Assembly (NCBI GenBank): GCA_903944345.1
Contig: CAJARJ010000018.1
Span: 120,581-184,580 of the forward strand
Reading direction: 5' to 3'
Origin: Candidatus Omnitrophota bacterium
GTDB lineage: Bacteria; Omnitrophota; Gorgyraeia; Zapsychrales; Fredricksoniimonadaceae
Length of the DNA stretch: 64,000 nucleotides
The notes beneath the pieces were generated by a model, which saw nothing but the letters and a program-made list of their open reading frames with translations, was not told where the DNA came from and searched no databases. A program made the translations under genes and the position numbers. Shown in pieces: positions 3,416 to 62,901 of this stretch (position 1 is its first letter; every line of letters starts with the position of its first letter).

Positions 3416-4357
3416 TTAATGCACCTGATTAAAAAACGTATGGAATATTTCTTCCCCAAGGCAGTTTAGCCTTACCTGAAAATCATCCAGATACTCGTGT
3501 AACCCGTGATGAACCACATCATCTACATCATTAAAACTGAACCGGGCAATGATCTTGCCCAGCTCTTTCTCGGCCGCATTACCGAACGCTCCCACGGGAG
3601 CGCCGGAAATGGCATGTAACGAACGATCCGCCTCCAGCAGCGAGAAATGGATAGCTCGCGGAAACTCCCGGTCAAAAACTAGCAGTTCCAGGATATTGCG
3701 AAAATCCATCCCCCCGTATTTCTTGCGATACACCTCATAAGCGCTCGTCGACTTGAGCAGCGCCGACCACTGCAACAGGTCAATCGCAGTCCCGACATCC
3801 TCGATTCTGGGCAGCAGATAAAAATACTTCATGTCAATGATCCGGGCCGTCTTGTCTGCCCGCTCGAGCAAGCGCCCGAGATTGGCAAAATGATACGACT
3901 CGTTATGCATAAGCGTTGAATCCATAATACCATTAAACAAGTGCGTCCCGTTCTTGATATCACGATACAGGTCAGACAAGTTCCCGTGCCTCTTCATCGT
4001 CATATCCTTCACAGACAAATAAAGTTCGTTTATCTGACGCCACATCTCGCTGGAAATAATCTCGCGCACCGTCCGTGCATTCTCCCTCGCCTGGGTCAGG
4101 CAACTCAGGATGGAATTGGGATTATTTCTGTTGAACGTCAGAAACTCAACAACCGCCTCGCGGGAATACTCGCCGTACTGGGATTCAAACAGAATGTCAT
4201 CCCCGGTAACACGCACCAGCGGTTGCCACTGTTCCGGCAAATCCCTGGGCAAATCGATACTTAACGAAATATTAACATCCATAAACCGGGCATAATTCTC
4301 CGCCCGTTCGATGCAACGATTCATCCAGTAAATAGAATCCGCCACCCGACTAAGCAT
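3416..4357 (-). CDS. Alpha-E domain protein (COG2307)
   Basis: MLSRVADSIYWMNRCIERAENYARFMDVN is a typical Alpha-E start. The ATG overlaps the upstream stop in the sequence ATGCTTAG, which suggests translational coupling. Confidence 0.8.
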   Translation of the reverse strand: MLSRVADSIYWMNRCIERAENYARFMDVNISLSIDLPRDLPEQWQPLVRVTGDDILFESQYGEYSREAVVEFLTFNRNNPNSILSCLTQARENARTVREIISSEMWRQINELYLSVKDMTMKRHGNLSDLYRDIKNGTHLFNGIMDSTLMHNESYHFANLGRLLERADKTARIIDMKYFYLLPRIEDVGTAIDLLQWSALLKSTSAYEVYRKKYGGMDFRNILELLVFDREFPRAIHFSLLEADRSLHAISGAPVGAFGNAAEKELGKIIARFSFNDVDDVVHHGLHEYLDDFQVRLNCLGEEIFHTFFNQVH

Positions 4358-5807
4358 GATCCACGCTCCCTTCCGCATTGCTCAGAACCCACGTATCTTT
4401 GGAACCGCCGCCCTGGGAAGAATTAACAACAAGCGACCCCTTGCACAAAGCAACACGGGTAAGCCCTCCCGAGAGAACCAGCGGTTCTTTTCCGAACAGG
4501 ATAAACGGCCGCAGATCAACATGCCGGCCTTCCAGCCCGTTGCCAATGAGCGTCGGAACCCGGGAAAGCGCCATGATCGGCTGAGCGATATAATTACGGG
4601 GGTCCTTCCTGATCTTGCCGATAAAATCCTCCTGCTGCGCCCGGGTGGAGGCAGATCCGACCAGCATGCCGTACCCGCCCGATTGACCGGATTCCTTGAC
4701 AACCATTTTCTCTATATTGGCAATAACATGCTCCCGTTCTTGCGGACGCCAGCACAAATACGTCGGGACATTGGGCAGGACAGGATCCTCGTGCAAATAA
4801 TACCTGATCATATCGGGCACAAAAGCGCAAATAACCTTGTCATCCGCCACCCCTGTACCGGGCGCATTGGCAAGCACCACCCGCCCTTTACGATACACAT
4901 CAAACAGTCCGGGCACGCCCAGCAGGGAATCGGAACGAAACACCTGAGGATCCAGCGACTCGTCGTCTACCCGACGATAAATTACATCAACCTGTTTAAG
5001 TCCACGGGTTGTCCGCATACAGCAAACCCCGTTATCCACAACAAGATCCCGCCCTTCGACCAGCTCCACCCCCATTTGCTGGGCCAGGAACGAGTGTTCA
5101 AAATAGGCAGAATTGTAAATACCCGGTGTCAGCACCACCACGTTCGGTTCCGGCACATCAGAGAGATATTCCAGCATCTCCAGAAGGCGCAGCGGGTACG
5201 TATTGACCGGACACACGTGGGTTCGCTCAAAGACTCCCGGGAACACGCGCTTCATGATCTCGCGATTCTCCAGAACATATGACACGCCGGAAGGAACACG
5301 GCAGTTATCTTCCAGCACATAATAGTGCCCGTCAGAATGGCGAATAAGATCAATCCCGCTGATATTGACCCAGCGGTTCCTGGGCGGATGGATTCCTTCG
5401 CAAGCCTTGAGATATCCCGACGAAGATTCAATGATCTCCTGCGGGACAACCTTGTCTTTAATCACGAGTTTCTTGCCATAGACATCATCAAGGAACGCAT
5501 CCAGTGCACGGACGCGCTGGATCAACCCCCGCTCGATCCCGCTCCATTCTTCGGCAGAAACGATCCTGGGCAGAAGGTCAAAGGGCATGGTGCGCTCGAC
5601 CCCTTCTCCCTCGGAATAAACGTTAAACGTAATGCCGCGGGCGATATAAGTTCTTTCGGCCGCGTGCTGTTTGGCCCTCAACTCATCCAGACTTATTGCC
5701 TGCAGATCATTAATAAAGGAACGGTAAGCCGGACGGACATCGCCGGAAGGGAAAAAGACCTCGTCGTAGAAACCGTCGGACTGATAGGACTGCAGTAGAT
5801 CTTTCAT
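4350..5807 (-). CDS. Circularly permuted ATP-grasp amidoligase (COG2308)
   Basis: MKDLLQSYQSDGFYDEVFFPSGDVRPAYRSF is a characteristic start. A GGGAGG ribosome binding site lies 6 nt upstream of the ATG at 5807. The ORF track's 5843 start is a TTG. Confidence 0.85.
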   Translation of the reverse strand: MKDLLQSYQSDGFYDEVFFPSGDVRPAYRSFINDLQAISLDELRAKQHAAERTYIARGITFNVYSEGEGVERTMPFDLLPRIVSAEEWSGIERGLIQRVRALDAFLDDVYGKKLVIKDKVVPQEIIESSSGYLKACEGIHPPRNRWVNISGIDLIRHSDGHYYVLEDNCRVPSGVSYVLENREIMKRVFPGVFERTHVCPVNTYPLRLLEMLEYLSDVPEPNVVVLTPGIYNSAYFEHSFLAQQMGVELVEGRDLVVDNGVCCMRTTRGLKQVDVIYRRVDDESLDPQVFRSDSLLGVPGLFDVYRKGRVVLANAPGTGVADDKVICAFVPDMIRYYLHEDPVLPNVPTYLCWRPQEREHVIANIEKMVVKESGQSGGYGMLVGSASTRAQQEDFIGKIRKDPRNYIAQPIMALSRVPTLIGNGLEGRHVDLRPFILFGKEPLVLSGGLTRVALCKGSLVVNSSQGGGSKDTWVLSNAEGSVDHA

Positions 5808-5962
5808 CCCGGCCTCCCTGATATAATAAAAAAAGCCCGACAAAAGAAAATTCTTTTGCCGGGCTCCATTACCCCTGAAAACAACATCAATATCGTTTCA
5901 ATCGTCACTATATCGGCATATGCGTCCGCTGTCAAGAAAAGTAAAACCTCTGCCGGCCTTTT

Positions 5963-9877: not shown

Positions 9878-11203
9878 TTAACGGATCAATCTATCAATAT
9901 CCTCAAACCCAAGAGCCTGCCATTCAACTTTATACTTTGGATAACTGGCGATCAGGGCCTTTGATTTTGCCTTTAATGCCGCGAGATCAATTCGGTCCTT
10001 GTTCATCTTAACTTCAGCAATAACCAGTTCTTTCTTCATATCGTTCATCGCCACCAGATCGATCTCGTTCTGATGATCCTTCTCCCAGTAAGACCCGATC
10101 TTATTGAATTTCCCAGTCTCCGCGAATAACGCCTGAAAGAACTGCTCAAGGACGCGGCCGGCATACGTCGAATAATCGCGCCTGATCACATCCCGAATAT
10201 ACTCAAAGTTCCCAGTCTCAACTGCGGACCGATTCCGATAAATGAACCGAAACCAGAATGCCAGGAAATTATCCGTGATCCGATACTTTTGGGACTTCGA
10301 ATTAGGCTTGGCATTGATCGGCTTATACTTCTCGATCACGGCATAGTCCCGTTCCAAGCGCTCAAGATACCCGCCGATATCTGACTCAAGAATGGACTGG
10401 ATCTCCGAGCGGCCCGTCTTCCCCACAGAGATCAACTCAAGAATAGAGAAGTATGTCCCATATTCCTTGCCGAACTCTTCGATCAACAGATTTCTGCCCT
10501 CATTGAGAAACGGCGAATTGGCCTCGACTACAAAGTTAAGCATCTCTTCAAATGTAAAGGCCTTATTCTCCACTAACAAATCAATATATTTTGGGCTCCC
10601 ACCGGTGAAAAGGAAATAATTGAACACCGCGGCAGAGTCCTTAACCTTATAATCACGCAGGATACTTGCTGTTGTCTTAACCGAAAAAGGCTTGATCATG
10701 AACATCCGATCCGCTCTATTGAACAACGGCTCTTTGGATCCTTCAAATATCTTGTGCATCAGGGAATAAACTGATCCAACGCAAATGACATTCAACTTGC
10801 TCTTGGCCTTGTTCAGATCCCAGAGTTTCTGCACCTCGGAATAAACTGACGGATTGATGTTGTAGAACTCCTGGAACTCATCAATGATAACAGTGAACGG
10901 CACATCCTTGGCGATCTGCAGCAACAACTGAAAAACATCACGGAAGGAACGGACATCCCCGATTACAGGAGCATCTGGGAACGATCGTTTGATATCTGCA
11001 ACAAACTCCTCACAAAGCAACACCTCAGACTTCTTGGCTACAAAAAGGTAAAGGTACTTCTTATCCTTGGCAAACTCTAAGGACAAAAGAGTCTTCCCCA
11101 CACGCCTGCGGCCGGTAAGAACGGCCATGCGGGAACCGCCTTTTGTCTGCCCCATCAATTTGTTGAGTTCAACCAATTCCTGCTGTCTATCATAGAATCT
11201 CAT
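9878..11203 (-). CDS. AAA+ ATPase of the archaeal-ATPase/DUF234 family
   Basis: Walker A motif LTGRRRVGKT. Walker B-like motif VIIDEFQEF. The C-terminal DUF234-like region (NFLAFWFRFIYRN) is present. A GGAGG ribosome binding site lies 8 nt before the ATG at 11203. The gene is AT-rich relative to its neighbours. Confidence 0.75.
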   Translation of the reverse strand: MRFYDRQQELVELNKLMGQTKGGSRMAVLTGRRRVGKTLLSLEFAKDKKYLYLFVAKKSEVLLCEEFVADIKRSFPDAPVIGDVRSFRDVFQLLLQIAKDVPFTVIIDEFQEFYNINPSVYSEVQKLWDLNKAKSKLNVICVGSVYSLMHKIFEGSKEPLFNRADRMFMIKPFSVKTTASILRDYKVKDSAAVFNYFLFTGGSPKYIDLLVENKAFTFEEMLNFVVEANSPFLNEGRNLLIEEFGKEYGTYFSILELISVGKTGRSEIQSILESDIGGYLERLERDYAVIEKYKPINAKPNSKSQKYRITDNFLAFWFRFIYRNRSAVETGNFEYIRDVIRRDYSTYAGRVLEQFFQALFAETGKFNKIGSYWEKDHQNEIDLVAMNDMKKELVIAEVKMNKDRIDLAALKAKSKALIASYPKYKVEWQALGFEDIDRLIR

Positions 11204-11394
11204 AATTGTAACCTCCGTTACTGTAACCAAGGTTACTATATAAAGCGGTATTTGTCAATGACTGGATAAATAGAAAGCCCCTCGTGATCTTACGATCACA
11301 AGGGGCTAAACTTCCAAATGCACTCCGTTGGGCACATTATGGTCACATATCTAAGATGTTAATTCCCGACAATATGCACTGCAACGATTTATAA

Positions 11395-12781: not shown

Positions 12782-12802
12782 ATAATGGTGGAGGTGCCGG
12801 GA
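12782..12802. repeat. ssrA 3'-terminal att core (partner of the 11395-11415 repeat)
   Basis: See the repeat at 11395-11415. Confidence 0.5.
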
Positions 12803-13175
12803 ATTGAACCCGGGTCCTTGTGTGTCTAAGATTGAGCATCTACATGCGTAGGCCGTCTTTAAATCTTGTTTTACGCGTTTCAACGGTCAAACCCGCGTAA
12901 AACCAGCCCTCTTGATCTTGTCCTTCCGGCGAAGGCATCGGAAAGACCAGCCTGTTTAGTTCCAATAGTAAAGCGACAGACTCCCTTTACTACAGGGCTT
13001 AGTCTTTTATTAGACTAAGGCTGGTGCTTCAGCTCCGGCCAAAATGGCCTCGGCTTCGGCGACGACGTCGTAGTTGTCGTTTGCGTTTGTTTTTTGATGG
13101 ATTTATACGAGGCCAACCATCATCCCCGGCATGCCACCCAGCCCCGGCTCACTCAAGTCGAGACCAGTCACCCCC
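12786..13175 (-). ncRNA. ssrA: tmRNA (SsrA)
   Basis: The 5' end is GGGGGGUGA (reverse complement of tcacccccc at 13168-13176). The 3' T-arm and acceptor end is GGGUUCAAUUCCCGGCACCUCCACCA (reverse complement of 12786-12810). The acceptor stem carries a G3.U wobble. A tag frame reads GCA AAC GAC AAC TAC GAC ... TAA TAA. smpB lies 560 bp away. Confidence 0.85.
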
Positions 13176-50030: not shown

Positions 50031-52076
50031 TCAGCACCCGCACCAGGGACGGGTCATGTCCCCGCGGACATCCTCAAGCGCACGCTCGAGCGCGCTGACC
50101 AGATGATCCAGTTCGGCCTCGGAAATTGACAACGGAGGCATGAGCACAATCACATTGCCCAAAGGACGCAGGATGACTCCGTAACGTCTGGCCTGCTCGC
50201 AAACCCTGACCCCGACCCGTTTCTGCCAGGCAAAAGGTTTCTTTGTCGCACGATCCTCGACCAGCTCAATACCGACCATAAACCCGCGCTGACGAATGTC
50301 CCCGACAAAGGGTTCATTCCGGCGCAAACGATCCAGCCGTCGCGCCAGAAACCCGATCTTGGGCCGCAGTTTTTCCAGCGTGCGTTCTTTTCGAAACAAA
50401 TCCAGGCTGGCCAATGCCGCGGCACAGGCAATGGGGTTCCCGGTAAAGGTGTGCCCGTGAAAAAAGGTTTTCATATCCTCATAAGGCCGCACAAAAGCAT
50501 CAAAAATTTTCTGTGTTGTCAGGGTTGCCGCCAGAGGCAAAACGCCTCCGGTCAGCCCCTTGGCCACACACATGAGGTCCGGACGAACATCTTCCTGCTG
50601 GCAGGCGAACATGGTCCCAGTCCGGCCAAAGCCAGTGGCCACCTCGTCACAAATCAGCAAAACATCATACTTGCGGCATAGCGCCTCAAAACGTTTCAGA
50701 ATCCCGGCAGGCCACATGATCATTCCGGCTGCTCCCTGCACAATCGGCTCCAGCACCAAAGCCGCCGTGGAAACATGGTTCTTTTTCAGAAAAGACTCAA
50801 AAACAGCCACTGCCCGCAGCGCATCCTGCGGATATTCCCCGCGGTAACAATCCGGAAAGTCCACCTGATGCGTCCGAAACGTCAGTCCGCGGTAAACCTT
50901 GTGAAATAGATCAATCCCCCCGATACTCACGCCGCCCAGAGTGTCCCCATGATACGAATTGGCCAGATGGCATATGCCGGTTTTTTTCTTCTGTCCCATA
51001 TTCTGCCAATACTGATAACTCATCTTGACCGCGACCTCGACAGCAGTAGAACCGTTATCAGAATAAAACACCTTGCTCAGCCCCTCGGGGGCAATGCCCA
51101 CAAGCTTTCCGGCCAGTTCGGCCGCCGGCGCGTTTGCCAGTCCAAGCATGGTGGAATGATCCAGCCGGGCAGCCTGCCGGGCGACCGCCTGTGTGATGGC
51201 CGGATGCCCGTGACCGTGCACCGTCACCCATAGGCTCGAAACACCATCAATATATCTGCATCCGGAAGCATCCTCCAGGTACGAACCACGCGCGCGAGAG
51301 ATAACCAGCGGAGTCCCGGAGAGCCAGTCTTTCATCTGGGTGAAAGGATGCCAGACAAAATCCTTGTCCAGCTTCTCCTGGCGGACAGCCGTGTCGGCTT
51401 TCCGGATAAATAACGGCCGCGAATCCAGATTCTTTCGACACGCCGCCAGCACGGAAAGAGGGTCTTTCTTCCTTATATAAGGGATCTCTCCCAGCAAAGG
51501 AGCCGTACCAAATTTTCTTATATCCTGCGGATTATTTTTCTCCGCCAGTCCCTTTTTCCCGGAAGCAGCATGACAAATGACCACTCCGGCGACTTCAAGT
51601 CCCCGGTTACGTGCCTCGCTAAGTGTCAGCAACGTATGATTGATGGTACCCAGCCCAGGACGCGCCACCACAATCAGCGGACAATCAAGCCTGGCAGCCA
51701 AATCAGCCATCAAAAAATTCTCCGCAAGCGGAACCAGAAGGCCTCCCGCTCCCTCCACCAGCACAATATCGTAGCGCCCAAGCAGCACATCCAGCGCCGA
51801 GATAACCCGGCCCGGATCAAAAGATATCTTCGCACGCCGAAGCGCCAGATGCGGCGATACCGGCTCCGCAGCACAAAACGGATTAAGCTCATGCAGCGAA
51901 TCCTTGAGGCCAAGCCTCCTGCGCAGAAAACCGGCATCATCTCCACCGGACTGAACCGGTTTAAGAATACCGACCGAAAGCCCCTCTTCCCGCAAAAGCA
52001 AGGCCAGCGCGTAAACCGTCATGGTTTTCCCCACCCCGGTATCCGTCGCCGTCACGAAAAACACCCTGTTATCCAT
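50031..52076 (-). CDS. bioDA: Bifunctional dethiobiotin synthetase / adenosylmethionine-8-amino-7-oxononanoate aminotransferase (BioD-BioA fusion)
   Basis: N-terminal BioD P-loop TDTGVGKT. C-terminal class III aminotransferase (BioA) with a VWHPFTQM start and a pyridoxal phosphate lysine region. Confidence 0.85.
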   Translation of the reverse strand: MDNRVFFVTATDTGVGKTMTVYALALLLREEGLSVGILKPVQSGGDDAGFLRRRLGLKDSLHELNPFCAAEPVSPHLALRRAKISFDPGRVISALDVLLGRYDIVLVEGAGGLLVPLAENFLMADLAARLDCPLIVVARPGLGTINHTLLTLSEARNRGLEVAGVVICHAASGKKGLAEKNNPQDIRKFGTAPLLGEIPYIRKKDPLSVLAACRKNLDSRPLFIRKADTAVRQEKLDKDFVWHPFTQMKDWLSGTPLVISRARGSYLEDASGCRYIDGVSSLWVTVHGHGHPAITQAVARQAARLDHSTMLGLANAPAAELAGKLVGIAPEGLSKVFYSDNGSTAVEVAVKMSYQYWQNMGQKKKTGICHLANSYHGDTLGGVSIGGIDLFHKVYRGLTFRTHQVDFPDCYRGEYPQDALRAVAVFESFLKKNHVSTAALVLEPIVQGAAGMIMWPAGILKRFEALCRKYDVLLICDEVATGFGRTGTMFACQQEDVRPDLMCVAKGLTGGVLPLAATLTTQKIFDAFVRPYEDMKTFFHGHTFTGNPIACAAALASLDLFRKERTLEKLRPKIGFLARRLDRLRRNEPFVGDIRQRGFMVGIELVEDRATKKPFAWQKRVGVRVCEQARRYGVILRPLGNVIVLMPPLSISEAELDHLVSALERALEDVRGDMTRPWCGC

Positions 52077-52914
52077 CCCACTCCTCCGTCGCTTTCTGCG
52101 CCGTAATCCATATAATCTCAAAAGTTGCAACCAGGCCATTACGCTGGGGAAACTTCTCGCGATAATACATCTCGGCCCGGCGCAAAAGCTGCGGCCCCAG
52201 AAAAAAATTACTCCTTAAAGAATTCCCGCCGACAGAACGCAGCCACCTCAATATCCCCCGCAAATCCGAAAATACAACTGTCCGCTGCTGCGCCCGGGTT
52301 TGCCAGCTGTCAAAACGGGCCTGCGAAAGAGCACTTTCGACCGTGCCCGAGGTCGGCAACCGGCCCAGTTCAAAGACATCTTTTCTGGATCCCAGCAGGG
52401 CAGCGAATTCAAGCGCTGCAAAAAACTCGCGCAAGGTGTCGTGTCCAAAGAAAGCCGCCTGAAAGACACCGCCAGGCTTGAGCACCTTGCGAACACTCCT
52501 GAAAGCCGCCGGCAAATCTTCAACCCATTGGTAAGAAGAGGCCGACACAACAGCATCAAACACATTGCGCCTGAAGGGAAGCGCTCCGGCATCAGCCTGC
52601 ACCCAGCGCAAACCCCGTGCGTCCCGGCGCCCTTGCTCGATCATACCCGAAGCCACGTCCAGCGCCACCGGGCACTGCTGGGGCCAGCGGCGATTAATGT
52701 CGGCAAGTAACGCGCCCGTCCCGGCGCCCACATCCAGAAGAAGTCCTCCGGCTGCAAGCTCCAGCCGGGAGGCAAGTTCGCGGGCAATCTCTCTCTGAAT
52801 CATGGCGGCAGCATCATAGGAGGTCGCAGCACGCGAGAAATTTCTTCGTACAATCCCTGGACGATCATCCCGATGGGGCGACTCCGGAAAACGACACCGG
52901 ACAGACTCAGACAT
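52069..52914 (-). CDS. bioC: Malonyl-ACP O-methyltransferase BioC-like
   Basis: SAM-binding motif LLDVGAGTG. Position within the bio cluster. Confidence 0.7.
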   Translation of the reverse strand: MSESVRCRFPESPHRDDRPGIVRRNFSRAATSYDAAAMIQREIARELASRLELAAGGLLLDVGAGTGALLADINRRWPQQCPVALDVASGMIEQGRRDARGLRWVQADAGALPFRRNVFDAVVSASSYQWVEDLPAAFRSVRKVLKPGGVFQAAFFGHDTLREFFAALEFAALLGSRKDVFELGRLPTSGTVESALSQARFDSWQTRAQQRTVVFSDLRGILRWLRSVGGNSLRSNFFLGPQLLRRAEMYYREKFPQRNGLVATFEIIWITAQKATEEWDG

Positions 52915-53737: not shown

Positions 53738-54897
53738 GCCAATTGATCCCGTACGTTGACCAGTGCTGCAACCAAGCGCACAATATCTTCCTCGAGATGC
53801 AGAGCCGTAACCGTAATGCGCAACCGCGCTGTACCTGAAGGCACTGTCGGCGGACGAATAGCCGAAATCAGAATATCCTGTTCCATCAACTTCTCGGAGA
53901 AAATTCTGGCCTTGAAAGTATCTCCGATCAACACCGGAATGACCGGAGTTACGCTCTCCATCGTGTTAAACCCTGCCCGCCGCAACTCCGTCCGCAGCCG
54001 TCCTGCCAAAAACAAAACACGAGCCCTGCGCTCAGGCTCCGCACGCATGATCCCCAACCCGGCGCGTATAGCCGCGGCAACTGCCGGAGGCAGCGCAGTA
54101 GAATAAATAAAGCTTCTGGCCCGATTAACCAGATAATCGATGAGTTCACGAGAACCCGCTACATACCCGCCACAGGCTCCGACCGCTTTGGACAAAGTCC
54201 CCATCTGGACATCCACGCGCTCGGCCACTCCGGCTTCCTGCACCATTCCCGCCCCGCCAGGCCCGAACAGTCCAAAAGCATGTGCCTCATCGACCATAAC
54301 CCAGGCACCATAACGACGGGCCAACCGCGTCAGCTCCCCGAGGGGAGCCACATCGCCATCCATGCTGAACACCGTGTCTGTCACCACCAGTTTACGGCCG
54401 TGTTTGCCGGAATTCTGCAGGCAGCGCTCCAAATCCTGCATATCCAGATGCCGATACCGCCGCATGTGCGCGCGGCTCAAGATAATACCGTCAACGATAG
54501 AGGCATGGTTAAGCCGGTCGGAAAAAACAGTATCCTCGCGGCCGCAAAGCGCGGGAATAATGCCGACATTGGCCATATAACCTGTCGAAAAAACAAGCGC
54601 GGCCTCGGTGCCCTTAAAACGAGCCAGTTCATGTTCCAGCAAAAGATGCTCTTCACTATTACCGCAAACCAGCCGCGAAGCTCCCCCGCCAAAACCGTAA
54701 CGGGCAGAAGACTCGACTGCGGCAGCGGACAGGCGCTCATCACCCGCCAGCCCCAGATAATCATTCGAACAGAAATTAAGAACCCTGCGCCCCTCCAAAA
54801 GAACTTCCCTGCCCTGACGGGAAAAAAGTGAACGCATCGAACGGTACAGTCCACCGGCCCGGGCAGCCCCCAGCTCCTGACTTAAAGTATTCTTCAT
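53734..54897 (-). CDS. bioF: 8-amino-7-oxononanoate synthase
   Basis: Pyridoxal phosphate-dependent alpha-oxoamine synthase motifs (FCSNDYLGL, pyridoxal phosphate Lys TLSKA). Confidence 0.85.
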   Translation of the reverse strand: MKNTLSQELGAARAGGLYRSMRSLFSRQGREVLLEGRRVLNFCSNDYLGLAGDERLSAAAVESSARYGFGGGASRLVCGNSEEHLLLEHELARFKGTEAALVFSTGYMANVGIIPALCGREDTVFSDRLNHASIVDGIILSRAHMRRYRHLDMQDLERCLQNSGKHGRKLVVTDTVFSMDGDVAPLGELTRLARRYGAWVMVDEAHAFGLFGPGGAGMVQEAGVAERVDVQMGTLSKAVGACGGYVAGSRELIDYLVNRARSFIYSTALPPAVAAAIRAGLGIMRAEPERRARVLFLAGRLRTELRRAGFNTMESVTPVIPVLIGDTFKARIFSEKLMEQDILISAIRPPTVPSGTARLRITVTALHLEEDIVRLVAALVNVRDQLA

Positions 54898-55790
54898 AAA
54901 TAAATTTCCCCTGCCACCCTTTTTATGACACGGCCGTCATCCAGAGCCAGCATAAGGCCGCCATCATCTGCAAGCCCCAATGCCGTTGCTGTCAGCCTTT
55001 TGCCTCCAGAGTCGAAACTTACCCGACAACCGGCAACCGCGGAGCGACGCTCCCATTCGCGTAAAACAACACTCCACCCGCAGTCTGATACAGAGAAATA
55101 TCTGCGCTCAAAAACACGCAAGAATGCCTGCAGAAGGACACTCCTGCCGCAATTGCCAACAGCCACCTCGCTTAACCCTATTGCTGTCGAGGACAGCTCT
55201 CCGGAAAGCGGGGCTATATTGAGCCCGATGCCAAGAATTACAAACTCAACACATTCTTTAGCCACTCGGGATTCCAGCAGAATACCTGCCAGTTTGCGCC
55301 CGTTGACCAGAATATCGTTAGGCCATTTGATGCGACAGTCGATACCTGCCGCGTCCTGCAAAGTTTCAGCCAACGCGACCGCAGAAAGCAAAGTCAGCAG
55401 CGGCGTCACAGTCGCCGGCCACGCGGGACGAAGAAGTAATGAAAAGTACATTCCGTTTCCGACAGGAGACACCCACGCACGCCCCAGGCGTCCACGCCCT
55501 TTGGTCTGGGCTTCAGCCGTAACCAGCGTCCCCTCGGGAGAACCAGACTCTGCCAGACGAAGCGCCTCATCCATAGTGGAAGAAAGGACGGGATGACAAT
55601 ACACCTGCCGGCCCATAATCCGGGTGTTAAGGCCGCAAATAATCCCTTCAGCCGAAAGGTTCGGGGCAACCGTGTTTGTACCCGGAGAGTCCGATGTCTG
55701 CCTGTTTATCATCCTGTCATAGTAAAGAGAGATAATTGGCTTGTCAACGGGGATCAAAGCCGAGGAAACCCAAAAGATCTTCCTGTGCAT
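54894..55790 (-). CDS. birA: Biotin--protein ligase (group I BirA, no N-terminal HTH)
   Basis: GRGRLGRAW and KWPNDIL motifs. The ATG at 55790 overlaps the upstream giant ORF by 47 nt. An alternative start is MINRQ at 55712. Confidence 0.8.
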   Translation of the reverse strand: MHRKIFWVSSALIPVDKPIISLYYDRMINRQTSDSPGTNTVAPNLSAEGIICGLNTRIMGRQVYCHPVLSSTMDEALRLAESGSPEGTLVTAEAQTKGRGRLGRAWVSPVGNGMYFSLLLRPAWPATVTPLLTLLSAVALAETLQDAAGIDCRIKWPNDILVNGRKLAGILLESRVAKECVEFVILGIGLNIAPLSGELSSTAIGLSEVAVGNCGRSVLLQAFLRVFERRYFSVSDCGWSVVLREWERRSAVAGCRVSFDSGGKRLTATALGLADDGGLMLALDDGRVIKRVAGEIYL

Positions 55791-58700
55791 GAACCGCGAT
55801 AATCACCGGCGAGAGGCCGGGCGTGTCACGTAGCGCCTTGAGCTGGGCTGAATCGATGTGAAACCGCAGAGCTCTGCCGGAGAACCCGACCTCCAGCCTG
55901 TCTGCCACAAGCCCGAGATCGACACCGCCAACAGGAGTGTCCGTTTCTGCGGCTTCGTTCGTAATCTGCACCGGGACAAAAAGATTCTCAACTATCCCGT
56001 CTTTCAAGAAAACACCATCCGGGACATTCTGCGCTGCAGCCTGGTAATTCATTTTTATCGGCTCATGCAAATGCAACGTCAGCTGCGGTTGGCGGTAAAG
56101 ACCCGCGCTTACCTTGACCAGAACCGGCGCGCCATTTTCATCCTGCATAGGCAAAGCACCGTAAGCATCAGAATACATAAAAGAAGAACGCCCGGGGAAA
56201 AGACTCAGATTAAAAGAACGCAAATCATTAAAACTGCGCATGATCTCCTGCGCCGGTCGATGCGAGGTGGTCACAAGCACGGGCAGTCCGGTCCGGAAAG
56301 AAAGGGCCTCAAACAGTCGATAAAGCCTGAGAATATCCCTTGTCCCAAACTGTTCGCTCTCCTCGATGACAATCGCCGGAAACTTTCTGCTTTCTTCCTG
56401 CACAATCATAAGCCTGACCATCCTCCGGGGCGGACTAACCTGCCCGTTCTCGTCAAGGAATGTCGCCGCCTTTACCGTTCCGTTAGAAATATACCCCGTT
56501 AGGCCGCGGTTGAGATCATTGGAATACGTGACACTCTGGCAAGCCGTTGACCCGGGATAATTGCCGATGTTCAGCAAAGCATAATAATCATCCGTAAAAG
56601 ACGCCCGCAAGCCTTCCCCCAGATCTATCTCAAGCGTTTCTTCCCAGGAACGTATCTTTTTAACCCTGGACTTAAGTTCATCGAATCCCTCGACTGCCAT
56701 CAGTTTCCTGTAAAAGCCCGCCTCGGATGTTACCCCGAAAGCCGCCTCCAGTCTGCCTTGATCTTCCGGAGCAAGCTCCCCCATAAAAATGGCCACGGCC
56801 TCGTCCAGAACCTTGAGATAATCCGGACTGGCATACTTCCATTGCCGGAACTCCCCGCGCGCTTCCGCCAGCAAGGCATCAAACATGTTGACGTAAATCT
56901 CCTCATCCTGGACACGTGACAAATACGTGCTGAGCAAATCCTTTATGCTGCGCTTCTCATGATCCAGCCATGAACTACGAGGATTATCAGGAGAAAAGTA
57001 CTCCCTTAACTCGGAAAATTCCTCCCCGCTAACCGGACGCAAGCGGCCGACCCGTTCTGCAAGAATGATCAAGTCTTTATCGGCATACATTTTTAGAAAA
57101 TCGCCGATGGCCCTGCGGTCGATCTGACCGGATCCGGCCTGCGCCAGGATATCAGCAGCCCGGGCGAACAGACCTTCACCGGAAGGATCATCAAGAGCCC
57201 GGAAAACCTTGTCAAACGCGCTTAACAATCCGGATAATTCTTCCGCCCAGGACGCCAGATTTGTTCTTGCCGGAAATCCAATTTCCGAATGCAGGAATTG
57301 CATCATCGCCGTAAAAACAGCCGTTTTTTCAGGATTCTTCTCAACGGACAATCGCGCTAGTGATTCATAAAGCCTGTTCTTGATCAACGACGATCCCGGT
57401 GCATTGTAAGCCGCCCTCATAAGAACCGCGAACAGCTGCATATCCTCCCGGGACTTTGCAAGCCGCAACAAAGGCTCAAAAAACACATGCGGTATCTGCG
57501 TCTGAACCGAAACAAGCACTCCCCCATCCTGATCAACAACTCCGGATTTGAGCTCTTCCAGCCCGGCCAGAAGTTTCGGGTCTCTTTTGGTTGCGGCCGC
57601 AAGGCTGCCGGTGACCTGTTCTTGCACGGCAACAGGCAACTGGCGCAAGAATGCAAAGCCATATTCCCGCAGGCTGTCTGCGGCTGAGAAAGAGTCCTCA
57701 TGATCTGCAGACGAGAGATCCCGGAATTTCTGAAGTCTGAGGGCCATGTCAGGATTCCCGGCATTGGCCAGGACTGTGCCAATAAACTTGCCTTTACCGT
57801 CAACCTTCGACAATGTATTCAGTTTAAATTCAATAATGGGTAATAACCCGATCTGTGCCAGACGCTCCTGCGGCAAATACCTTTCGACAGCTCTGACAAG
57901 ATTGGGCAAAGTCGCAGACTGTTTGACCCCTTCAAGGAAGCCCGGAACATCTACTGGAGCCGCAGTCCCTGCCGCCAGAAGAATGTCCCCCAGAAATACA
58001 ATCTGATCGCTGAGGACAAACAGGTTGGAAACAATAAACTCAAACTCGCGCATCAGCTGATCAATATCAAGATCTTCCCTTGCCTTAAACCTGGCCCTTA
58101 AATCTGTTCTTAATTCTTCCAGGGACTGTTTGGGATCATCCCGAATAAACGCCAGAATCCGGGACAACTCCTCAACCGATACCCAGCCCAACAAACGCTG
58201 GATGTCCTCCAGCTTGACGGCATACTGTTGCGAATCGTTATAAAAGAACTCTTCGAAAACCTTCCTGTCGGCCCCGACATCCCTTCCCTCCGAAAAAAGA
58301 AGATCAAACAGCTCGTTCTTCTGGTCTTCTCCCAGCCTTCTGATCGCAGGATGTTCCACCTTCTCACGGTTGAGTTCCCTTGCGACCCAGTTAATCTGGC
58401 CACGGAACTCCGGATCGTAGACCCGGCGGACATCCCCGCGCTCCTTAAGATAGCGGGCGACCTTGATGTTAACACCAAACAACCGCGCAATCTGGACATC
58501 CGGCAGAGCACGAATCACGCCTAAAAGCACAACCGCCGTTTCAGGATCATTGCGCACAAGAGCTTCGATAGCCTTGCCCGTCACCCCGGGGAAATGGCCC
58601 GCCAGAAACTGCAACCGGGCAAGAATTAACCCGTATGTTCTGGATGCTGATTCTGTTCCTGCAACAGATCTGGCGAGAAACTCCGTATGGAAGATATCCA

Positions 58701-61700
58701 GCAAACTTTTAACAACCAGTCGGGATTGACGATCTCCGTTATAGGATAATTTTCTTAAGATTTCTATCTCCCACTCTCCCGCTGTCTGCTGTGAGGACAA
58801 ATCATTCTCTGTGCGCTCCTGTGCGAGGGCCCGCGCCAGACGCTGAACCATGACCTGACGTAAACCATCGGCAACGCTATCCTCAAGCGCTCCGGCCTGA
58901 GTGAGAATACCACTCGCCTCGCGGAGAAGAACTTCATTTGCCCCGCCGTTGAGAACAATATCCAGAAGAACATTCCCGGGCCGGGCCGCGACTCTGGCTC
59001 TTATTAAGCGCCAGGACTCCAGTGTCATCTCATCCCCTGCATTCACCGCAAGCTGGTATGCTTGTTGAATCTCCGCCTCATATGACCCCAGGTCAAAAGC
59101 CTCCGGCAACTCATCCCACTTCTGCAGAATCTGTTGCGGATCATAAGCCAGAAGAAACATCAAGATCCTGCGTAAATCATCCGGATTCTTTCTCTCGATC
59201 CTGTCCAAAAGGCCTTTCCAGACTTCAGCCTGGCGATCTGGCTCTGTTCCGGAAACAATAACCGGAGCTAACAACATTAAACTATCGTATGCCCATCGGT
59301 TTTGACTGCACAAACGCTCGATATCCGCCCAGGAATCAGCGAGCAAATCCGGCCCCAGAGACTCACCCAGAACAGAAAGAAATCTGGCCGGTGAGCTGTC
59401 ATCCTGCCGCAAACCGTACAAATAATGAAAATAATCCTCGGCATCCGCGATTAATTCTTCTGCCCGGTGCCCGAATGCCTCCATAAAAACAACCACAAAT
59501 TCAAAAAGCGTAACTCTGTCTATCCCGGACACCTCTTGCCCGGTCATCTGCCCAACCACGGGGACGACTAGCTCCTGATGTGCCAGATACCATTCCCCCG
59601 CACCACCGGACATAAACCGCAACAGAAGCGGCCTGACACCCGTACGCTCGCTCATAGGCAGCAGGCTCTCAAATATCCCCGCCCGGCTGACGATCAGCGG
59701 AAGCCAGGTTCGCCATCGAACAAGCCGATATTCCGCACTCTTAAGAGCCTCGGACATAAGAGCAACCACAAGATTTCTGTCATAACTTCCCGTCGGTGGA
59801 AATCTCCCTGCGATCTGCGCCACAGCAGGGTTAATCTCTTGCAAAAACGTCTCCAGTTCCATATCAGAAGCGAGCAAGGCGACAAGATCATAGGTATACT
59901 CCTCAACATAACCCAAAGAGTCTCCCCATTGATTGAGTCCCGAAACAATCTGCTCTCCCAGCAAACGTGCATCAACACGAAAAACATCTTTCCCATAAAC
60001 TGAAACCAGTGCTCTGATAAAACCCAGAACGGCGGGTCTGTGCAGGTGCTGGATTGTATTTAACGGCCCGCAGAGCGAATCAATCCAGTCGTTGAACTTC
60101 CGCCCGGAGATGCCGATATCGTTCCCTGTTCTCTCAAGCACTGTCAAAAAAACCGTTTCAAGAAAACCTCTGTCCGCGCCAGCCTTCTCCGGAAGAAAGA
60201 AACCAAAGATATCTTCATCCGATTCTCCCCAAAAATTCTGCAGTCCGCGAGACTCCTTCCAGGCCAGAATACTGGCGACACGTCGCAGCTGAACATCAAT
60301 CCAGGCATCTAATCCGACCGTTTTTTCGACCAGGGCAAGGAACCCCCCCGTAAAATATGCCCAGTGCTTGCGGATTTTCTCCCTTCCCATATATTCAACG
60401 GCCACGCCCAGTAAATAAATCCTTCTTTCCGCATCTTTCTGCCCCAGCCATGGCGGAAGATGCGTTTCAAAGTCTTCCCATGCGTCAGCACCTTCCGGCT
60501 GAGCACGCAATCCGATAAGATTCTTCACGGCTGACTCAAGGCTCCAATCGGACACCTCAGGCGAAGCGGCTGCGGCCAGCTGATGCGTAAAGTTCAGAAT
60601 GGAAGAAGCGTGGGCAATAAAGCGTGCTCCTCCGATTCTCCCTTTCATTCCCTTTAGAACACCATTAAGAACCCCAACAAATTTTTTTCTTGATTGCGAC
60701 GGTAATGTGGCAAACGTTTCCGCCCATTGGCCGCTTAGTTCCGGCCAGAATGCTATGAAATTCCGTTCCCCTTCAAGGACATCCGCAACGCTCCGGATCA
60801 CCGAAACATAATCTTCTCCCAATCCGGGATATTTTCCGTCATCATCAACTTTTCTGACAATAGCTGCCACCCCCTCGATAAATCCTTCCTGTTTCAGCCA
60901 GTCCCGGGGGTATTTCGCATGAACTTCTTTCCACACCGCAGCAATTCTTGCGCCATCATCTCCCGTTTCAAGAACAAGCGCAAGCATATCCGACAAACGC
61001 TCCAGAGTCTCTGCCTCTTGACCGGAAGAACTCTCTTCCAGCATCAACTCCAGCATATTGCGCAAAGCATAACTTTTGACCTGATCGGCATGCACAGCAA
61101 ACAGTTTTCTGGCAGCTTCAAACAGGGTTGCCCCATTATTACGCCACCCCTCCATGCCTGCTTTCTGTGCCAGGGAAACAACTGCCCCGGGCAAGGCACT
61201 GTAAAGCATGCCGGAGAGCTGTCTGGGCGGAGTTCCTGCAAAAAATGACCAGACGCTGTCAAATAGTTCCGGATTTTCCTGTAACGGGAAATAAACCTCT
61301 TCCACAAGACGCTTTGCGAGAAACACTCCCACTCCGTTCCTGAGCAAGCCAAAAATACGCCGCCAGATCTCGGGAGGAATCCGTTCAGGATTCTCCTGCC
61401 ATTCTGCCGGATGCCATAACAGCTGCAGCCCGGAACGTATATCCTCAGCCTCGCTCAACAAGCCATTATCACGCCAGAATTCTACCTGACTGCGAAAAAA
61501 GGCAAGATCAGCCATTGAAGGAGAACCGAACATCCCGGCCTGATAAACAATGGCTTTATTCAGCCTCCGGGCAAGTGAACGTGCGCGCGAACCAACCTTG
61601 GGCTCCTCTGCACTCTGACCGTGCACTCCTGCTACCGCTGTCTGCAAGGTGCGAACGGATTGACGCAAGGAAGGTTTTAACATGACCCGCAGCCCATAAT

Positions 61701-62868
61701 ATGTACCCTTTATCGCCCCGCCCATCCGGCTTAAAAAACCGGAACGATCTGCTGTGGTAATCTGCATTGCTTTATCCATCTCACCGGCAAAAGAAAATCC
61801 ACCGGCAAAATATTTGCGCGGGATAAGCTCTCCCGAATACACATCCTGCTCGTCTCTGATTATGTCGTAAGCCCCCTGTTTGAATGACTGGATATAACGC
61901 TGCCAGATCTTTTCACTTTCATCGGGATCCGCCATGTCAACCCCCGCCACTCTGCCGCGATCTACGTACACCCGGGACAACAAACTCTCCTTGATCTTGC
62001 GCTTGTACCACGCCGAGAGGACGAGCGAATAGTACGCCTGCCGCAAGCGGGCAAACCCGGCGCCATAATTAACCTCGTGCTCAAGAACCGGGAGTACCAC
62101 TTCACGAAACACCGGCCTGACCAACTCCTGCATAGAACCTTCAGAAGGAACACTCTCTTCTTGCGATTGAAACGAATTATTTTTCGTAACCGCCAGATAA
62201 TCTGTTTCCAGAAGCACTTTAAGCCTGGTCTCGGTCACATAAGCTGCCACCTCGGTCTGTCCATCCTCTCCATCTGATTGCCTCTCAAAAATAGCTGCCC
62301 GATCAGGCATGATCCAGACTTTATTAAACGTATCAACCGGAATATCTGTCGTACCGTAGCGTGCAAATGCCCGCGCGTAAACCTTCTGCCAGAACGCTTT
62401 CCCTGCCTCCTCTTGCGGATAAAGTAAAGAAGAGGCCAGCTGCTTGAGCAAATAATCTTGCGCCAGCAAATCCCGCCCCATCTCGGTCTGTCCAAACTCG
62501 TTGACTATAATGCGGCTTTTTTCATAAGGCGAAAGGTTGACCCACAGATCTTTCTCCGGTATGGTCAAGCCCGCCAAAAAGTACCGAATCAGGCGTGGGG
62601 CTTCTGTCTGCAAAATCTCATCTGAAGTCTTTCCGGAGGGAGGAGCATCACTGGCAGCCAAAATAAAATCCAGCCGAAGAGGATCGGCTTCCTGCACCCT
62701 GACTCCTTTAAGAACTGGCGGAGAATAATCGACACTCAAGGCCACCCTGGTTCCTGGCACCGGCAGCAGGGACGCCGACTGCCCGTAGACAGGAGGCATG
62801 CTACTGGTCGTAAACAAAGCCGCAAGCACAGTCAGACAGACTATTCTTTTGACTCCGTTAGACATCAT
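55744..62868 (-). CDS. Giant (2374 aa) secreted protein of unknown family, predicted mainly alpha-helical
   Basis: A single uninterrupted ORF. Signal peptide MMSNGVKRIVCLTVLAALFTTSSMPPVYGQSA. An AAGGAGAGA ribosome binding site directly precedes the ATG. The composition is dominated by L, A, E, R and is low in G and P. No recognisable catalytic or repeat motifs were found. The C-terminal ~330 aa have a different composition. Confidence 0.7.
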   Translation of the reverse strand: MMSNGVKRIVCLTVLAALFTTSSMPPVYGQSASLLPVPGTRVALSVDYSPPVLKGVRVQEADPLRLDFILAASDAPPSGKTSDEILQTEAPRLIRYFLAGLTIPEKDLWVNLSPYEKSRIIVNEFGQTEMGRDLLAQDYLLKQLASSLLYPQEEAGKAFWQKVYARAFARYGTTDIPVDTFNKVWIMPDRAAIFERQSDGEDGQTEVAAYVTETRLKVLLETDYLAVTKNNSFQSQEESVPSEGSMQELVRPVFREVVLPVLEHEVNYGAGFARLRQAYYSLVLSAWYKRKIKESLLSRVYVDRGRVAGVDMADPDESEKIWQRYIQSFKQGAYDIIRDEQDVYSGELIPRKYFAGGFSFAGEMDKAMQITTADRSGFLSRMGGAIKGTYYGLRVMLKPSLRQSVRTLQTAVAGVHGQSAEEPKVGSRARSLARRLNKAIVYQAGMFGSPSMADLAFFRSQVEFWRDNGLLSEAEDIRSGLQLLWHPAEWQENPERIPPEIWRRIFGLLRNGVGVFLAKRLVEEVYFPLQENPELFDSVWSFFAGTPPRQLSGMLYSALPGAVVSLAQKAGMEGWRNNGATLFEAARKLFAVHADQVKSYALRNMLELMLEESSSGQEAETLERLSDMLALVLETGDDGARIAAVWKEVHAKYPRDWLKQEGFIEGVAAIVRKVDDDGKYPGLGEDYVSVIRSVADVLEGERNFIAFWPELSGQWAETFATLPSQSRKKFVGVLNGVLKGMKGRIGGARFIAHASSILNFTHQLAAAASPEVSDWSLESAVKNLIGLRAQPEGADAWEDFETHLPPWLGQKDAERRIYLLGVAVEYMGREKIRKHWAYFTGGFLALVEKTVGLDAWIDVQLRRVASILAWKESRGLQNFWGESDEDIFGFFLPEKAGADRGFLETVFLTVLERTGNDIGISGRKFNDWIDSLCGPLNTIQHLHRPAVLGFIRALVSVYGKDVFRVDARLLGEQIVSGLNQWGDSLGYVEEYTYDLVALLASDMELETFLQEINPAVAQIAGRFPPTGSYDRNLVVALMSEALKSAEYRLVRWRTWLPLIVSRAGIFESLLPMSERTGVRPLLLRFMSGGAGEWYLAHQELVVPVVGQMTGQEVSGIDRVTLFEFVVVFMEAFGHRAEELIADAEDYFHYLYGLRQDDSSPARFLSVLGESLGPDLLADSWADIERLCSQNRWAYDSLMLLAPVIVSGTEPDRQAEVWKGLLDRIERKNPDDLRRILMFLLAYDPQQILQKWDELPEAFDLGSYEAEIQQAYQLAVNAGDEMTLESWRLIRARVAARPGNVLLDIVLNGGANEVLLREASGILTQAGALEDSVADGLRQVMVQRLARALAQERTENDLSSQQTAGEWEIEILRKLSYNGDRQSRLVVKSLLDIFHTEFLARSVAGTESASRTYGLILARLQFLAGHFPGVTGKAIEALVRNDPETAVVLLGVIRALPDVQIARLFGVNIKVARYLKERGDVRRVYDPEFRGQINWVARELNREKVEHPAIRRLGEDQKNELFDLLFSEGRDVGADRKVFEEFFYNDSQQYAVKLEDIQRLLGWVSVEELSRILAFIRDDPKQSLEELRTDLRARFKAREDLDIDQLMREFEFIVSNLFVLSDQIVFLGDILLAAGTAAPVDVPGFLEGVKQSATLPNLVRAVERYLPQERLAQIGLLPIIEFKLNTLSKVDGKGKFIGTVLANAGNPDMALRLQKFRDLSSADHEDSFSAADSLREYGFAFLRQLPVAVQEQVTGSLAAATKRDPKLLAGLEELKSGVVDQDGGVLVSVQTQIPHVFFEPLLRLAKSREDMQLFAVLMRAAYNAPGSSLIKNRLYESLARLSVEKNPEKTAVFTAMMQFLHSEIGFPARTNLASWAEELSGLLSAFDKVFRALDDPSGEGLFARAADILAQAGSGQIDRRAIGDFLKMYADKDLIILAERVGRLRPVSGEEFSELREYFSPDNPRSSWLDHEKRSIKDLLSTYLSRVQDEEIYVNMFDALLAEARGEFRQWKYASPDYLKVLDEAVAIFMGELAPEDQGRLEAAFGVTSEAGFYRKLMAVEGFDELKSRVKKIRSWEETLEIDLGEGLRASFTDDYYALLNIGNYPGSTACQSVTYSNDLNRGLTGYISNGTVKAATFLDENGQVSPPRRMVRLMIVQEESRKFPAIVIEESEQFGTRDILRLYRLFEALSFRTGLPVLVTTSHRPAQEIMRSFNDLRSFNLSLFPGRSSFMYSDAYGALPMQDENGAPVLVKVSAGLYRQPQLTLHLHEPIKMNYQAAAQNVPDGVFLKDGIVENLFVPVQITNEAAETDTPVGGVDLGLVADRLEVGFSGRALRFHIDSAQLKALRDTPGLSPVIIAVHAQEDLLGFLGFDPR

Positions 62869-62873
62869 TCTCT

Positions 62874-62901
62874 CCTTCAGGCTTCAGACTCCACCTGAAG
62901 G
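62874..62901 (-). promoter_or_regulatory. Stem-loop overlapping the ribosome binding site of the giant gene
   Basis: Perfect 8 bp inverted repeat ccttcagg/cctgaagg. The arm proximal to the start codon contains the AAGGAG ribosome binding site. Confidence 0.3.

Follow-up and report, generated by a model that had tools for sequence, protein, structure and literature searches.

The DNA analysed here, a stretch of 64,000 nucleotides (nt) from a Candidatus Omnitrophota bacterium (contig CAJARJ010000018.1, positions 120,581 to 184,580; called the window below), contains one very long gene, whose product of 2374 amino acids (aa) is referred to here as the giant protein. This protein belongs to a large protein family that is specific to Omnitrophota and modular in build; its members consist of a signal peptide, a conserved N-terminal module (the head, ~340 aa), a variable cargo and a conserved C-terminal tail (~60 aa). 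The polarity of this architecture is strict, the family is restricted to the phylum and occurs in several copies per genome, and the cargo is totally variable. Head and tail, together called the caps, have no description in Pfam (2025 copy), NCBIfam (2026) or the accessible parts of the literature searched, including the papers on Omnitrophota, and the two-cap family is apparently undescribed. As their sequence conservation suggests, the caps may be trafficking or anchoring modules of an exported protein, a reading to which a probability of roughly 0.55 is given.

The family was recognized in searches at several scales. In a collection of 5.8 billion proteins, at least 2059 proteins matched the giant protein at E<1e-3, and, where named, almost all of them came from metagenome-assembled genomes (MAGs) of Candidatus Omnitrophica/Omnitrophota. 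Apart from the copies with 100% and 80% identity, these matches cover only about 15% of the giant protein. By local BLAST, residues 1 to ~372 aligned at 44–56% identity with 118 proteins, and in 89 of the 118 residues ~2314–2374 were also aligned, at the C-terminus of the matched protein or no more than ~20 residues from it. With hidden Markov models of both caps, the head was always found at the N-terminus of family members, and the tail was found in a single copy, always at the extreme C-terminus, in 124 of the 207 proteins examined. A scan of one genome per GTDB species yielded at least 591 family loci. The preliminary description of this DNA had called the giant protein one of unrecognisable family; it belongs instead to a family of more than 2000 clusters with a conserved head and tail, and its C-terminal domain has a predicted GNAT fold.

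The matches listed include 79 loci, nearly all of which carry Omnitrophota or Omnitrophica labels; 19 are labelled "uncultured Planctomycetales" and two "Candidatus Elulimicrobium", labels that are unchecked. A single MAG contributes up to 5–6 of these loci, and 13 of the 79 hold two or three members in tandem. Together they contain 95 open reading frames (ORFs) with a head, and both caps are present in 66. Most of the other 29 ORFs are truncated at contig ends or broken by frameshifts (at least 12 reach to a few bases from the end of their locus, and five are split genes whose tail ORF follows closely). Family ORFs that are not cut by a locus edge range from ~735 to 3535 aa, and an apparent minimal member of 429 aa with caps only was rejected as a fragment cut by the locus edge.

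The caps are about 50% identical between paralogues with unrelated cargo, and the cargo itself is unrelated from member to member. It includes S-adenosylmethionine (SAM) methyltransferases, SNF2 ATPases, radical SAM/B12, PP2C, PEP-utilising and HATPase domains, M48/ABC1 proteins, response regulators, NUDIX and HAD domains, nucleotide kinases, and HEAT, WD40 and pentapeptide repeats, and many cargo stretches have no annotation. A divergent subfamily of three proteins of 3020–3731 aa (P0126, P0131 and P0132) matches the head more weakly (E about 1e-63 to 1e-65) and departs from the rest of the family in its N-terminal signature (FEQAGFAQVA) and its conserved C-terminus (...ANILRLEED..V.TP.ELKEIL); these proteins carry the same GNAT-ended cargo module as the giant protein.

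The head consensus starts with LPxPGxMVxLSPxFxPPxLKGIKVxPDNPFRFDFILDKGD, continues through LIKYFLASLTVPEKDLWVNLSPYEKDRI..FGxTEMGRDLLAQDYxLKQ and then NKVWIVPEKAVVYE, and ends with EVNEGKNFAQLRQVYNSLILAxWYKKK followed by IPRKYFSGG. The giant protein carries the corresponding signature, LPxPG...PEKDLWVNLSPYEKDRI...TEMGRDLLAQDYxLKQ...PRKYFSGG, directly after its putative signal peptide. The tail consensus reads GGIDL...IKF..DPAxLxQLQNAPGFxPVIINIQPMxDLxxFLG. The tail of the giant protein is divergent, with 31% identity to the reference tail, and it is weakly ordered when modelled in AlphaFold2 (AF2) with the preceding domain (predicted local distance difference test, 47–80). A profile search with the tail alone returned only short fragments on short contigs and two cases on long contigs, both split or remnant genes beside an ORF with a head. 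Stand-alone tail proteins were therefore rejected, and the tail was not found independently of the family. One of the remnants lies in locus L085 (4900–9444; MAG JADFXH010000003.1), where a 147-aa ORF holding only a canonical tail lies ~200 nt downstream of a 1298-aa member that has a divergent tail itself. The short ORF resembles an orphan remnant and may indicate that paralogues recombine or swap cargo.

The giant protein begins with MMSNGVKRIVCLTVLAALFTTSSMPPVYG↓QS (the arrow marks the putative cleavage site), which comprises a basic n-region with K7 and R8, a hydrophobic core at residues 9–27 (Kyte-Doolittle value of 1.71 in a 19-residue window) and a small-x-small site, V-Y-G↓Q. A small-x-small↓Q motif follows the hydrophobic core in 98 of 119 family N-termini, typically as S-Y-A↓Q. 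Because this motif matches the signal-peptidase-I pattern, Sec export with cleavage at VYG↓Q would be the simplest reading. Most family members have one N-terminal hydrophobic segment and no other; in the giant protein, hydropathy typical of transmembrane (TM) segments is reached by residues 9–27 and 1616–1634. The public JGI gene call (P0001, 2351 aa) begins at Met24, so that the conserved signal peptide (window 62800–62868, minus strand) is lost; the gene is recorded there as Ga0486119_06112 and Ga0488962_0542020.

Comparison with an orthologue of 80% aa identity (P0002, locus L001) indicated that the gene is intact. The two proteins align end to end with five gap positions over 2374 codons, and the ratio of nonsynonymous to synonymous substitution rates (Ka/Ks) is 0.15 overall and 0.12–0.25 in each region. 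The giant gene is thus real, uninterrupted and under purifying selection along its whole length. Between its AGGAG ribosome-binding site and the first ATG (62868) lie 3 nt; a second ATG in the same frame (62865) follows the site at 6 nt. These results agree with the preliminary description, which had proposed a single intact 7.1 kb ORF with a strong ribosome-binding site, and by inspection the basic n-region, hydrophobic core and small-x-small site are in keeping with the signal peptide that it had predicted. Directly upstream of the ribosome-binding site is an inverted repeat (CTTCAG-gtggagt-CTGAAG, 62881–62899, minus strand), one arm of which has two substitutions in the orthologue (CTGAAG to TTAAAG) that weaken the pairing.

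Other properties first ascribed to the protein held in part. It is rich in L (12.1%), A (9.4%), E (7.8%) and R (7.5%), which together make up 36.7%, as had been noted, but with 7.4% G it is not low in glycine; V accounts for 7.6% and P for 4.2%, and there are four cysteines. The claim that it is an all-alpha protein is wrong at both modelled ends, where about 580 residues are predicted to be mixed alpha/beta. Scans of Pfam, NCBIfam, PADLOC and the PDB sequences yielded no usable match, either with the whole protein or with the profiles A1 and A2; tiles of the protein had no Pfam match at E<=5, and self-BLAST revealed no internal repeats. The absence of RHS, alpha-2-macroglobulin, Ig-repeat and toxin motifs was confirmed in Pfam and NCBIfam, and assignment to a known large family, which profile searches had been expected to reveal if it existed, did not result, as no family of a curated library claims the protein.

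The coordinates of the giant gene, its parts and the adjoining features are collected in Table 1.

Table 1. Features of the giant gene and its surroundings, in window positions and in residues of the giant protein.
Feature	Residues	Positions	Strand	Basis or remark
Giant ORF, 2374 aa	1-2374	55744..62868	minus	ATG start, TGA stop at 55746-55744; 7.1 kb
Shine-Dalgarno sequence AGGAG		62872..62876	minus	read directly from sequence
Signal-peptide-like N-terminus (KR, hydrophobic core, VYG↓Q)	1-29	62782..62868	minus	inspection and family motif
Conserved head, ends ...PRKYFAGG then DKAM	~30-372	61753..62781	minus	family alignment
D-K-A-M junction motif	365-368	61765..61776	minus	D-x-A-M enrichment across 185 members
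Lineage-specific cargo	421-1329	58882..61608	minus	present only in P0001 and P0002; Ka/Ks 0.175
Shared cargo module, first part	1330-2050	56719..58881	minus	aligned with P0003-P0006
Predicted GNAT-fold domain	~2051-2290	55999..56718	minus	confident structure model; invariant Cys2110 in NIGNYPGSTACQ (56536-56553)
Conserved tail (VGGVDL...FHIDSAQLKALRDTPGLSPVIIAVHAQEDLLGFLGFDPR)	2314-2374	55747..55929	minus	tails of 89/118 matches
Sigma-70-like promoter TTGACA-17 nt-TACTAT		55719..55747	minus	overlaps giant gene stop, ends 6 nt before birA ATG
birA, group I biotin-protein ligase, first gene of bio cluster		54894..55712	minus	family scans; not part of the giant protein's system

The cargo of the giant protein consists of a lineage-specific part and a shared module. 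The lineage-specific part has no Pfam match at E<=5. A word-indexed homology search with residues 400–2300 found two orthologues only; this search missed P0003–P0006 and so carries little weight for remote relatives of residues 421–1329. The shared module, residues ~1330–2260, is common to the giant protein and P0003–P0006 at 29–39% identity, and its profile matched 91 clusters among 1.84 billion representatives (38 at E<1e-30). Many of the carriers are proteins of 2000–8000 aa, with or without caps. Conserved motifs in the first part of the module are VNIKVARYL, NREKxxHPxxRRLGEDEK, DPKQSLEE, SNLFVL, QIPHVFFEPLL, WxDHExR and WKYxSPDYL. The most widespread piece is its last ~190 residues (FTDDYYxLxNIGNYPGSTACQ...NRGLxGY..NGxxKA...RRxVRL...PxIFVEExxQFG...GRSxxxYSDxYG), which is found in short proteins as well and in a family whose members have about 1000 aa; in the distant carriers this GSTACQ domain is without Pfam annotation.

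A confident structure model gave the last cargo domain the order of strands and helices of a GNAT fold (beta-alpha-alpha-beta3-alpha-beta-alpha-beta). After beta4, the family consensus EExxQFGxxG (EESEQFGTRD in the giant protein) is near but not identical to the coenzyme A (CoA)-loop motif Q/RxxGxG/A. The invariant Cys, the Glu-Glu pair and the Tyr-Ser-Asp motif suggest ligand binding or catalysis. A separate C-terminal domain had been proposed for this region, and one does exist (the GNAT-fold domain, followed by the family tail), although it begins near residue 2050 rather than at 2093. In P0004 (2152–2289), P0151 (442–522) and P0160 (835–914), a canonical Pfam GNAT domain follows the GSTACQ domain; the giant protein has no such second domain. 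The PF13480/PF00583 matches in these three proteins fall in the second GNAT domain and were not used as evidence for the GSTACQ domain. Tandem-GNAT layouts are known from Eis- and MshD-type proteins, where catalytic activity is often absent from one of the two copies.

Both junctions between caps and cargo share a short motif, D-x-A-M. In many members it stands 4–8 residues after the terminal YFSGG of the head (within 45 residues in 104 of 185), and in 64 of the 185 it stands 7–8 residues before the GGIDL of the tail; inside the cargo it is about 7-fold commoner than expected from composition (185 members). The head junction of the giant protein reads FAGG-FSFAGEM-DKAM. D-x-A-M was also considered as an in-frame ribosome-binding site with start codon, but its second codon varies, which favours a motif at the level of the protein. 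Giant Omnitrophota proteins are reported, in the accessible parts of the work on them, to contain C39 peptidase domains, and peptidases of this type cleave behind Gly-Gly. D-x-A-M together with Gly-Gly at both junctions could represent processing or linker sites.

In the mechanism proposed here, the signal peptide would take the giant protein out by the Sec route and would be cut at VYG↓Q. Because the two ends remain ~50% identical around freely exchanged cargo, they would be expected to contact a common partner, and this contact would keep the caps constant. Acting as targeting, anchoring or docking modules, they would bring different cargoes to one location, for instance the envelope or surface of the cell, or a host or prey cell. 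In the giant protein, the cargo so delivered would be a long, probably helical scaffold with a divergent GNAT-type, acyltransferase-like domain at its end.

Several observations weigh against this proposal. Much of the family cargo consists of ATP-, SAM-, CoA- or Fe-S-dependent domains of cytoplasmic type, which fit the periplasm or the outside poorly. The tail has no counterpart among the sorting-signal profiles of Pfam and NCBIfam, structure comparison of the head gave no relative that points to trafficking, and no secretion or sorting gene (nor any immunity gene) recurs beside 60 complete members. No Pfam GNAT profile matches the last cargo domain of the giant protein, in which the CoA-loop motif is kept only in approximate form (QFGxxG). 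Cofactor-dependent cargo suits a cytoplasm, either that of the own cell, if the proteins stay at the membrane, or that of a host or prey. Tentatively, the caps might serve as recognition elements of an undescribed Omnitrophota-specific pathway for the export, display or delivery of shuffled cytoplasm-type enzymes, which is a doubtful extension of the trafficking proposal; these enzymes would end up in a surface coat or inside host or prey cells, and the Gly-Gly and D-x-A-M junctions might be processed. A predatory or parasitic lifestyle has been proposed in the accessible parts of the Omnitrophota papers, and delivery into a host or prey cell would fit it.

Two other explanations of the caps have to be weighed against trafficking or anchoring. 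The tail may dock to the head of another member or of the same molecule, e.g., by donating its PVIINI strand, so that paralogues would assemble into chains or a surface coat as a non-covalent counterpart of the covalent giant multi-enzyme proteins of the phylum. Every complete member has both caps, which are found nowhere else, the tail is disordered alone in AF2, and the model of the head shows exposed beta-hairpins, all of which would suit such docking. The cargo repertoire also resembles that reported for Omnitrophota giant proteins, and Velamenicoccus is described as a "coated" coccus, as far as the accessible parts of these sources go. However, the divergent subfamily of P0126, P0131 and P0132 has the head yet a different C-terminus, and docking appears somewhat unlikely. 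It is quite unlikely that the family members are housekeeping proteins of the envelope, held by an uncleaved anchor or exported by an ordinary signal peptide, which would serve as scaffolds and enzymes of the inner membrane or periplasm for the cell's own envelope, with no delivery to other cells and no export-signal role for the caps. The single N-terminal hydrophobic segment, the ordinary chromosomal, co-directional housekeeping contexts of the genes and the purifying selection throughout are in keeping with this explanation, but conservation of the small-x-small↓Q site points to cleavage, periplasmic housekeeping hardly accounts for dozens of paralogues whose unrelated enzymatic cargo is of cytoplasmic type, and the conserved terminal tail is left without a role.

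A connection of the giant protein with biotin synthesis was also considered on account of its neighbours. Downstream of the giant gene on the same strand lie birA, bioF, bioH, bioC, a bioD-bioA fusion and mnmA, and upstream lie yggT and a gene for an MscS-type channel; Pfam and NCBIfam scans substantiated the birA-bioF-bioH-bioC-bioDA order given in the preliminary description. The giant protein would then be co-transcribed and translationally linked with birA-bio, for instance as a biotin- or acyl-related enzyme or a scavenging factor. The common strand, the 31-nt gap to birA and the identical synteny (giant gene, birA-bioF-bioH-bioC-bioDA-mnmA) in the 80% orthologue speak for this idea, as does the predicted acyl-CoA-transferase-type fold of the last domain; biotin synthesis starts from acyl-acyl carrier protein or acyl-CoA chemistry. 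However, shared synteny with so close an orthologue is not informative, and P0003, which shares the head and cargo module and is the closest cargo homologue whose locus was examined, adjoins a GATase gene and trpC/trpF-type genes. Among 110 non-family neighbours of 60 complete members, the largest cluster has four sequences, and this cluster, like most clusters of two, is the same ORF counted from both sides, so that no neighbour family recurs. A same-strand gene follows 47 of the 60 members, and the gap is <250 nt in 43 of these 47, so tight co-directional packing is the family norm. A conserved promoter-like element also separates the giant gene from birA. A biotin role thus appears very improbable, and the operon partnership first proposed found no support. 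The place of the giant gene before birA-bio looks incidental, owed to chance in a compact, co-directional genome and not to a shared function. It had further been asked whether homologues are confined to one clade and whether they also precede bio genes; nearly all are from Omnitrophota, but the trp-type surroundings of P0003 speak against a general bio linkage.

The start of birA bears on the same junction. The giant gene had been described as ending inside or within 32 nt of birA. The gap of 31 nt to ATG 55712 agrees with the second form of this claim; the first depends on the start of the longest birA ORF at 55790, inside the giant gene, and is disfavoured by the 271-aa BirA call of the orthologue, which matches ATG 55712. 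In the JGI record birA is called as 226 aa, compared to the 271–272 aa supported by the orthologue. The 50-nt junction of giant gene and birA is identical in L001. Since the coding sequence on either side has diverged to a Ks of about 0.75, the unbroken identity of the junction suggests a functional promoter and/or start region for birA. The birA-bio genes may well be transcribed from their own promoter, and read-through from the giant gene is possible. The promoter-like site has a perfect -35 element (TTGACA) over the stop codon of the giant gene and a -10 element (TACTAT), and its position would imply a leaderless or near-leaderless birA mRNA. BirA has no N-terminal helix-turn-helix domain and is thus a group I ligase, not a repressor. 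The fused bioD and bioA form a 702-aa ORF (50031–52139, minus strand) with AAA_26/dethiobiotin synthase and class III aminotransferase parts.

The rest of the window is ordinary chromosome (purL, purD, purB, glyA, AcrB/OEP efflux, CCA-adding enzyme), and almost all genes run on the minus strand. It includes a transfer-messenger RNA (12786–13175, minus strand) with an unusually long tag peptide, ANDNYDVVAEAEAILAGAEAPALV, that ends in LV instead of the common AA. A circularly permuted ATP-grasp protein (4350–5843) and an ATPase_2/DUF234 protein (9878–11230) are also encoded on the minus strand.

If the caps are trafficking modules, the family would exemplify, in a new form, the known combination of constant trafficking domains with variable cargo; should they be recognition elements of an undescribed export or delivery pathway, the class of effector system would be new. 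Two-partner secretion (TPS), the type IX secretion system (T9SS) and polymorphic toxins were revealed by signatures of this kind; in the two-cap family the signature comprises thousands of members, ~50% identity of the head between paralogues, a tail that is constant, a signal peptide and swappable cargo with many enzymes of cytoplasmic type. Omnitrophota are described, in the accessible parts of the papers on them, as abundant, uncultured and ultra-small, and are thought to be predators or parasites. Two sequence profiles provide a handle for listing candidate effectors or coat proteins in any Omnitrophota genome. In addition, family members annotated as "hypothetical proteins" are often mis-started, as in the JGI call at Met24, and operon inference from neighbours is misleading in compact Omnitrophota genomes.

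Compared to known systems, the two-cap proteins show likenesses on several sides. Like TpsA proteins (FHA, CdiA, HMW1), they have a (here putative) Sec signal peptide, a conserved N-terminal module of 250–350 aa, which is the secretion signal in TpsA, a long variable passenger and several paralogues. In contrast to TpsA, they match no TPS domain profile of Pfam or NCBIfam, the modelled structure is no beta-helix, no TpsB-type or Omp85-type gene is adjacent to the giant gene, an extra conserved tail is present, and the cargo is enzyme-like instead of adhesin or toxin repeats. With the type IX secretion cargo of Bacteroidota they share a predicted signal peptide, arbitrary cargo and a small conserved domain at the extreme C-terminus, which is the sole common feature of that cargo. 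However, residues 2040–2374 have no Pfam match at E<=5, the whole protein has no match to an NCBIfam C-terminal domain of this type, the phylum is another one, and the tail is shorter (~60 aa) and always paired with the head. Polymorphic toxins and effectors (Rhs, CDI, LXG, MafB) likewise combine constant trafficking parts with variable parts, are multi-copy and leave orphan remnants, as in the L085 tail ORF; the variable part of the two-cap proteins, unlike theirs, is central and very large, and in place of short C-terminal toxins it contains enzyme domains of a metabolic or regulatory kind, and no immunity-like neighbour recurs among the 60 members. Because none of the defining domains of these three systems is present, the likeness is one of analogy, not of membership.

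At the level of single parts, the domain at residues 2051–2290 differs from the GNAT superfamily in having no sequence-profile match, and the invariant Cys in its GSTACQ loop is atypical of GNATs; its activity is putative. The tail was considered as a PGF-CTERM-like sorting signal and rejected: it contains "PGF/PGL", but, compared to PGF-CTERM, PEP-CTERM and LPXTG signals, it has no C-terminal TM segment and matches no NCBIfam sorting model or other profile. Neither the whole protein nor its tiles matched RHS, alpha-2-macroglobulin, RTX or autotransporter families in Pfam or NCBIfam. The nearest comparison within the phylum is with the Omnitrophota giant proteins of >10,000 aa (West-Roberts et al. 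2023, doi 10.1101/2023.11.21.568195; Nielsen & Lui 2026, doi 10.64898/2026.06.07.730766). The head and tail caps are undescribed in the accessible parts of these preprints. Compared to these giants, which are of "Archaeovorin"/dockerin type with multiple TM helices, the protein described here has 2374 aa, two TM-like segments and no dockerin, TSP3 or C39 domain. Nevertheless, so far as the accessible parts of the preprints extend, the two groups share the phylum, the common occurrence of signal peptides and the same cargo repertoire of methyltransferase, HATPase, GNAT, HAD and radical SAM domains and HEAT scaffolds.

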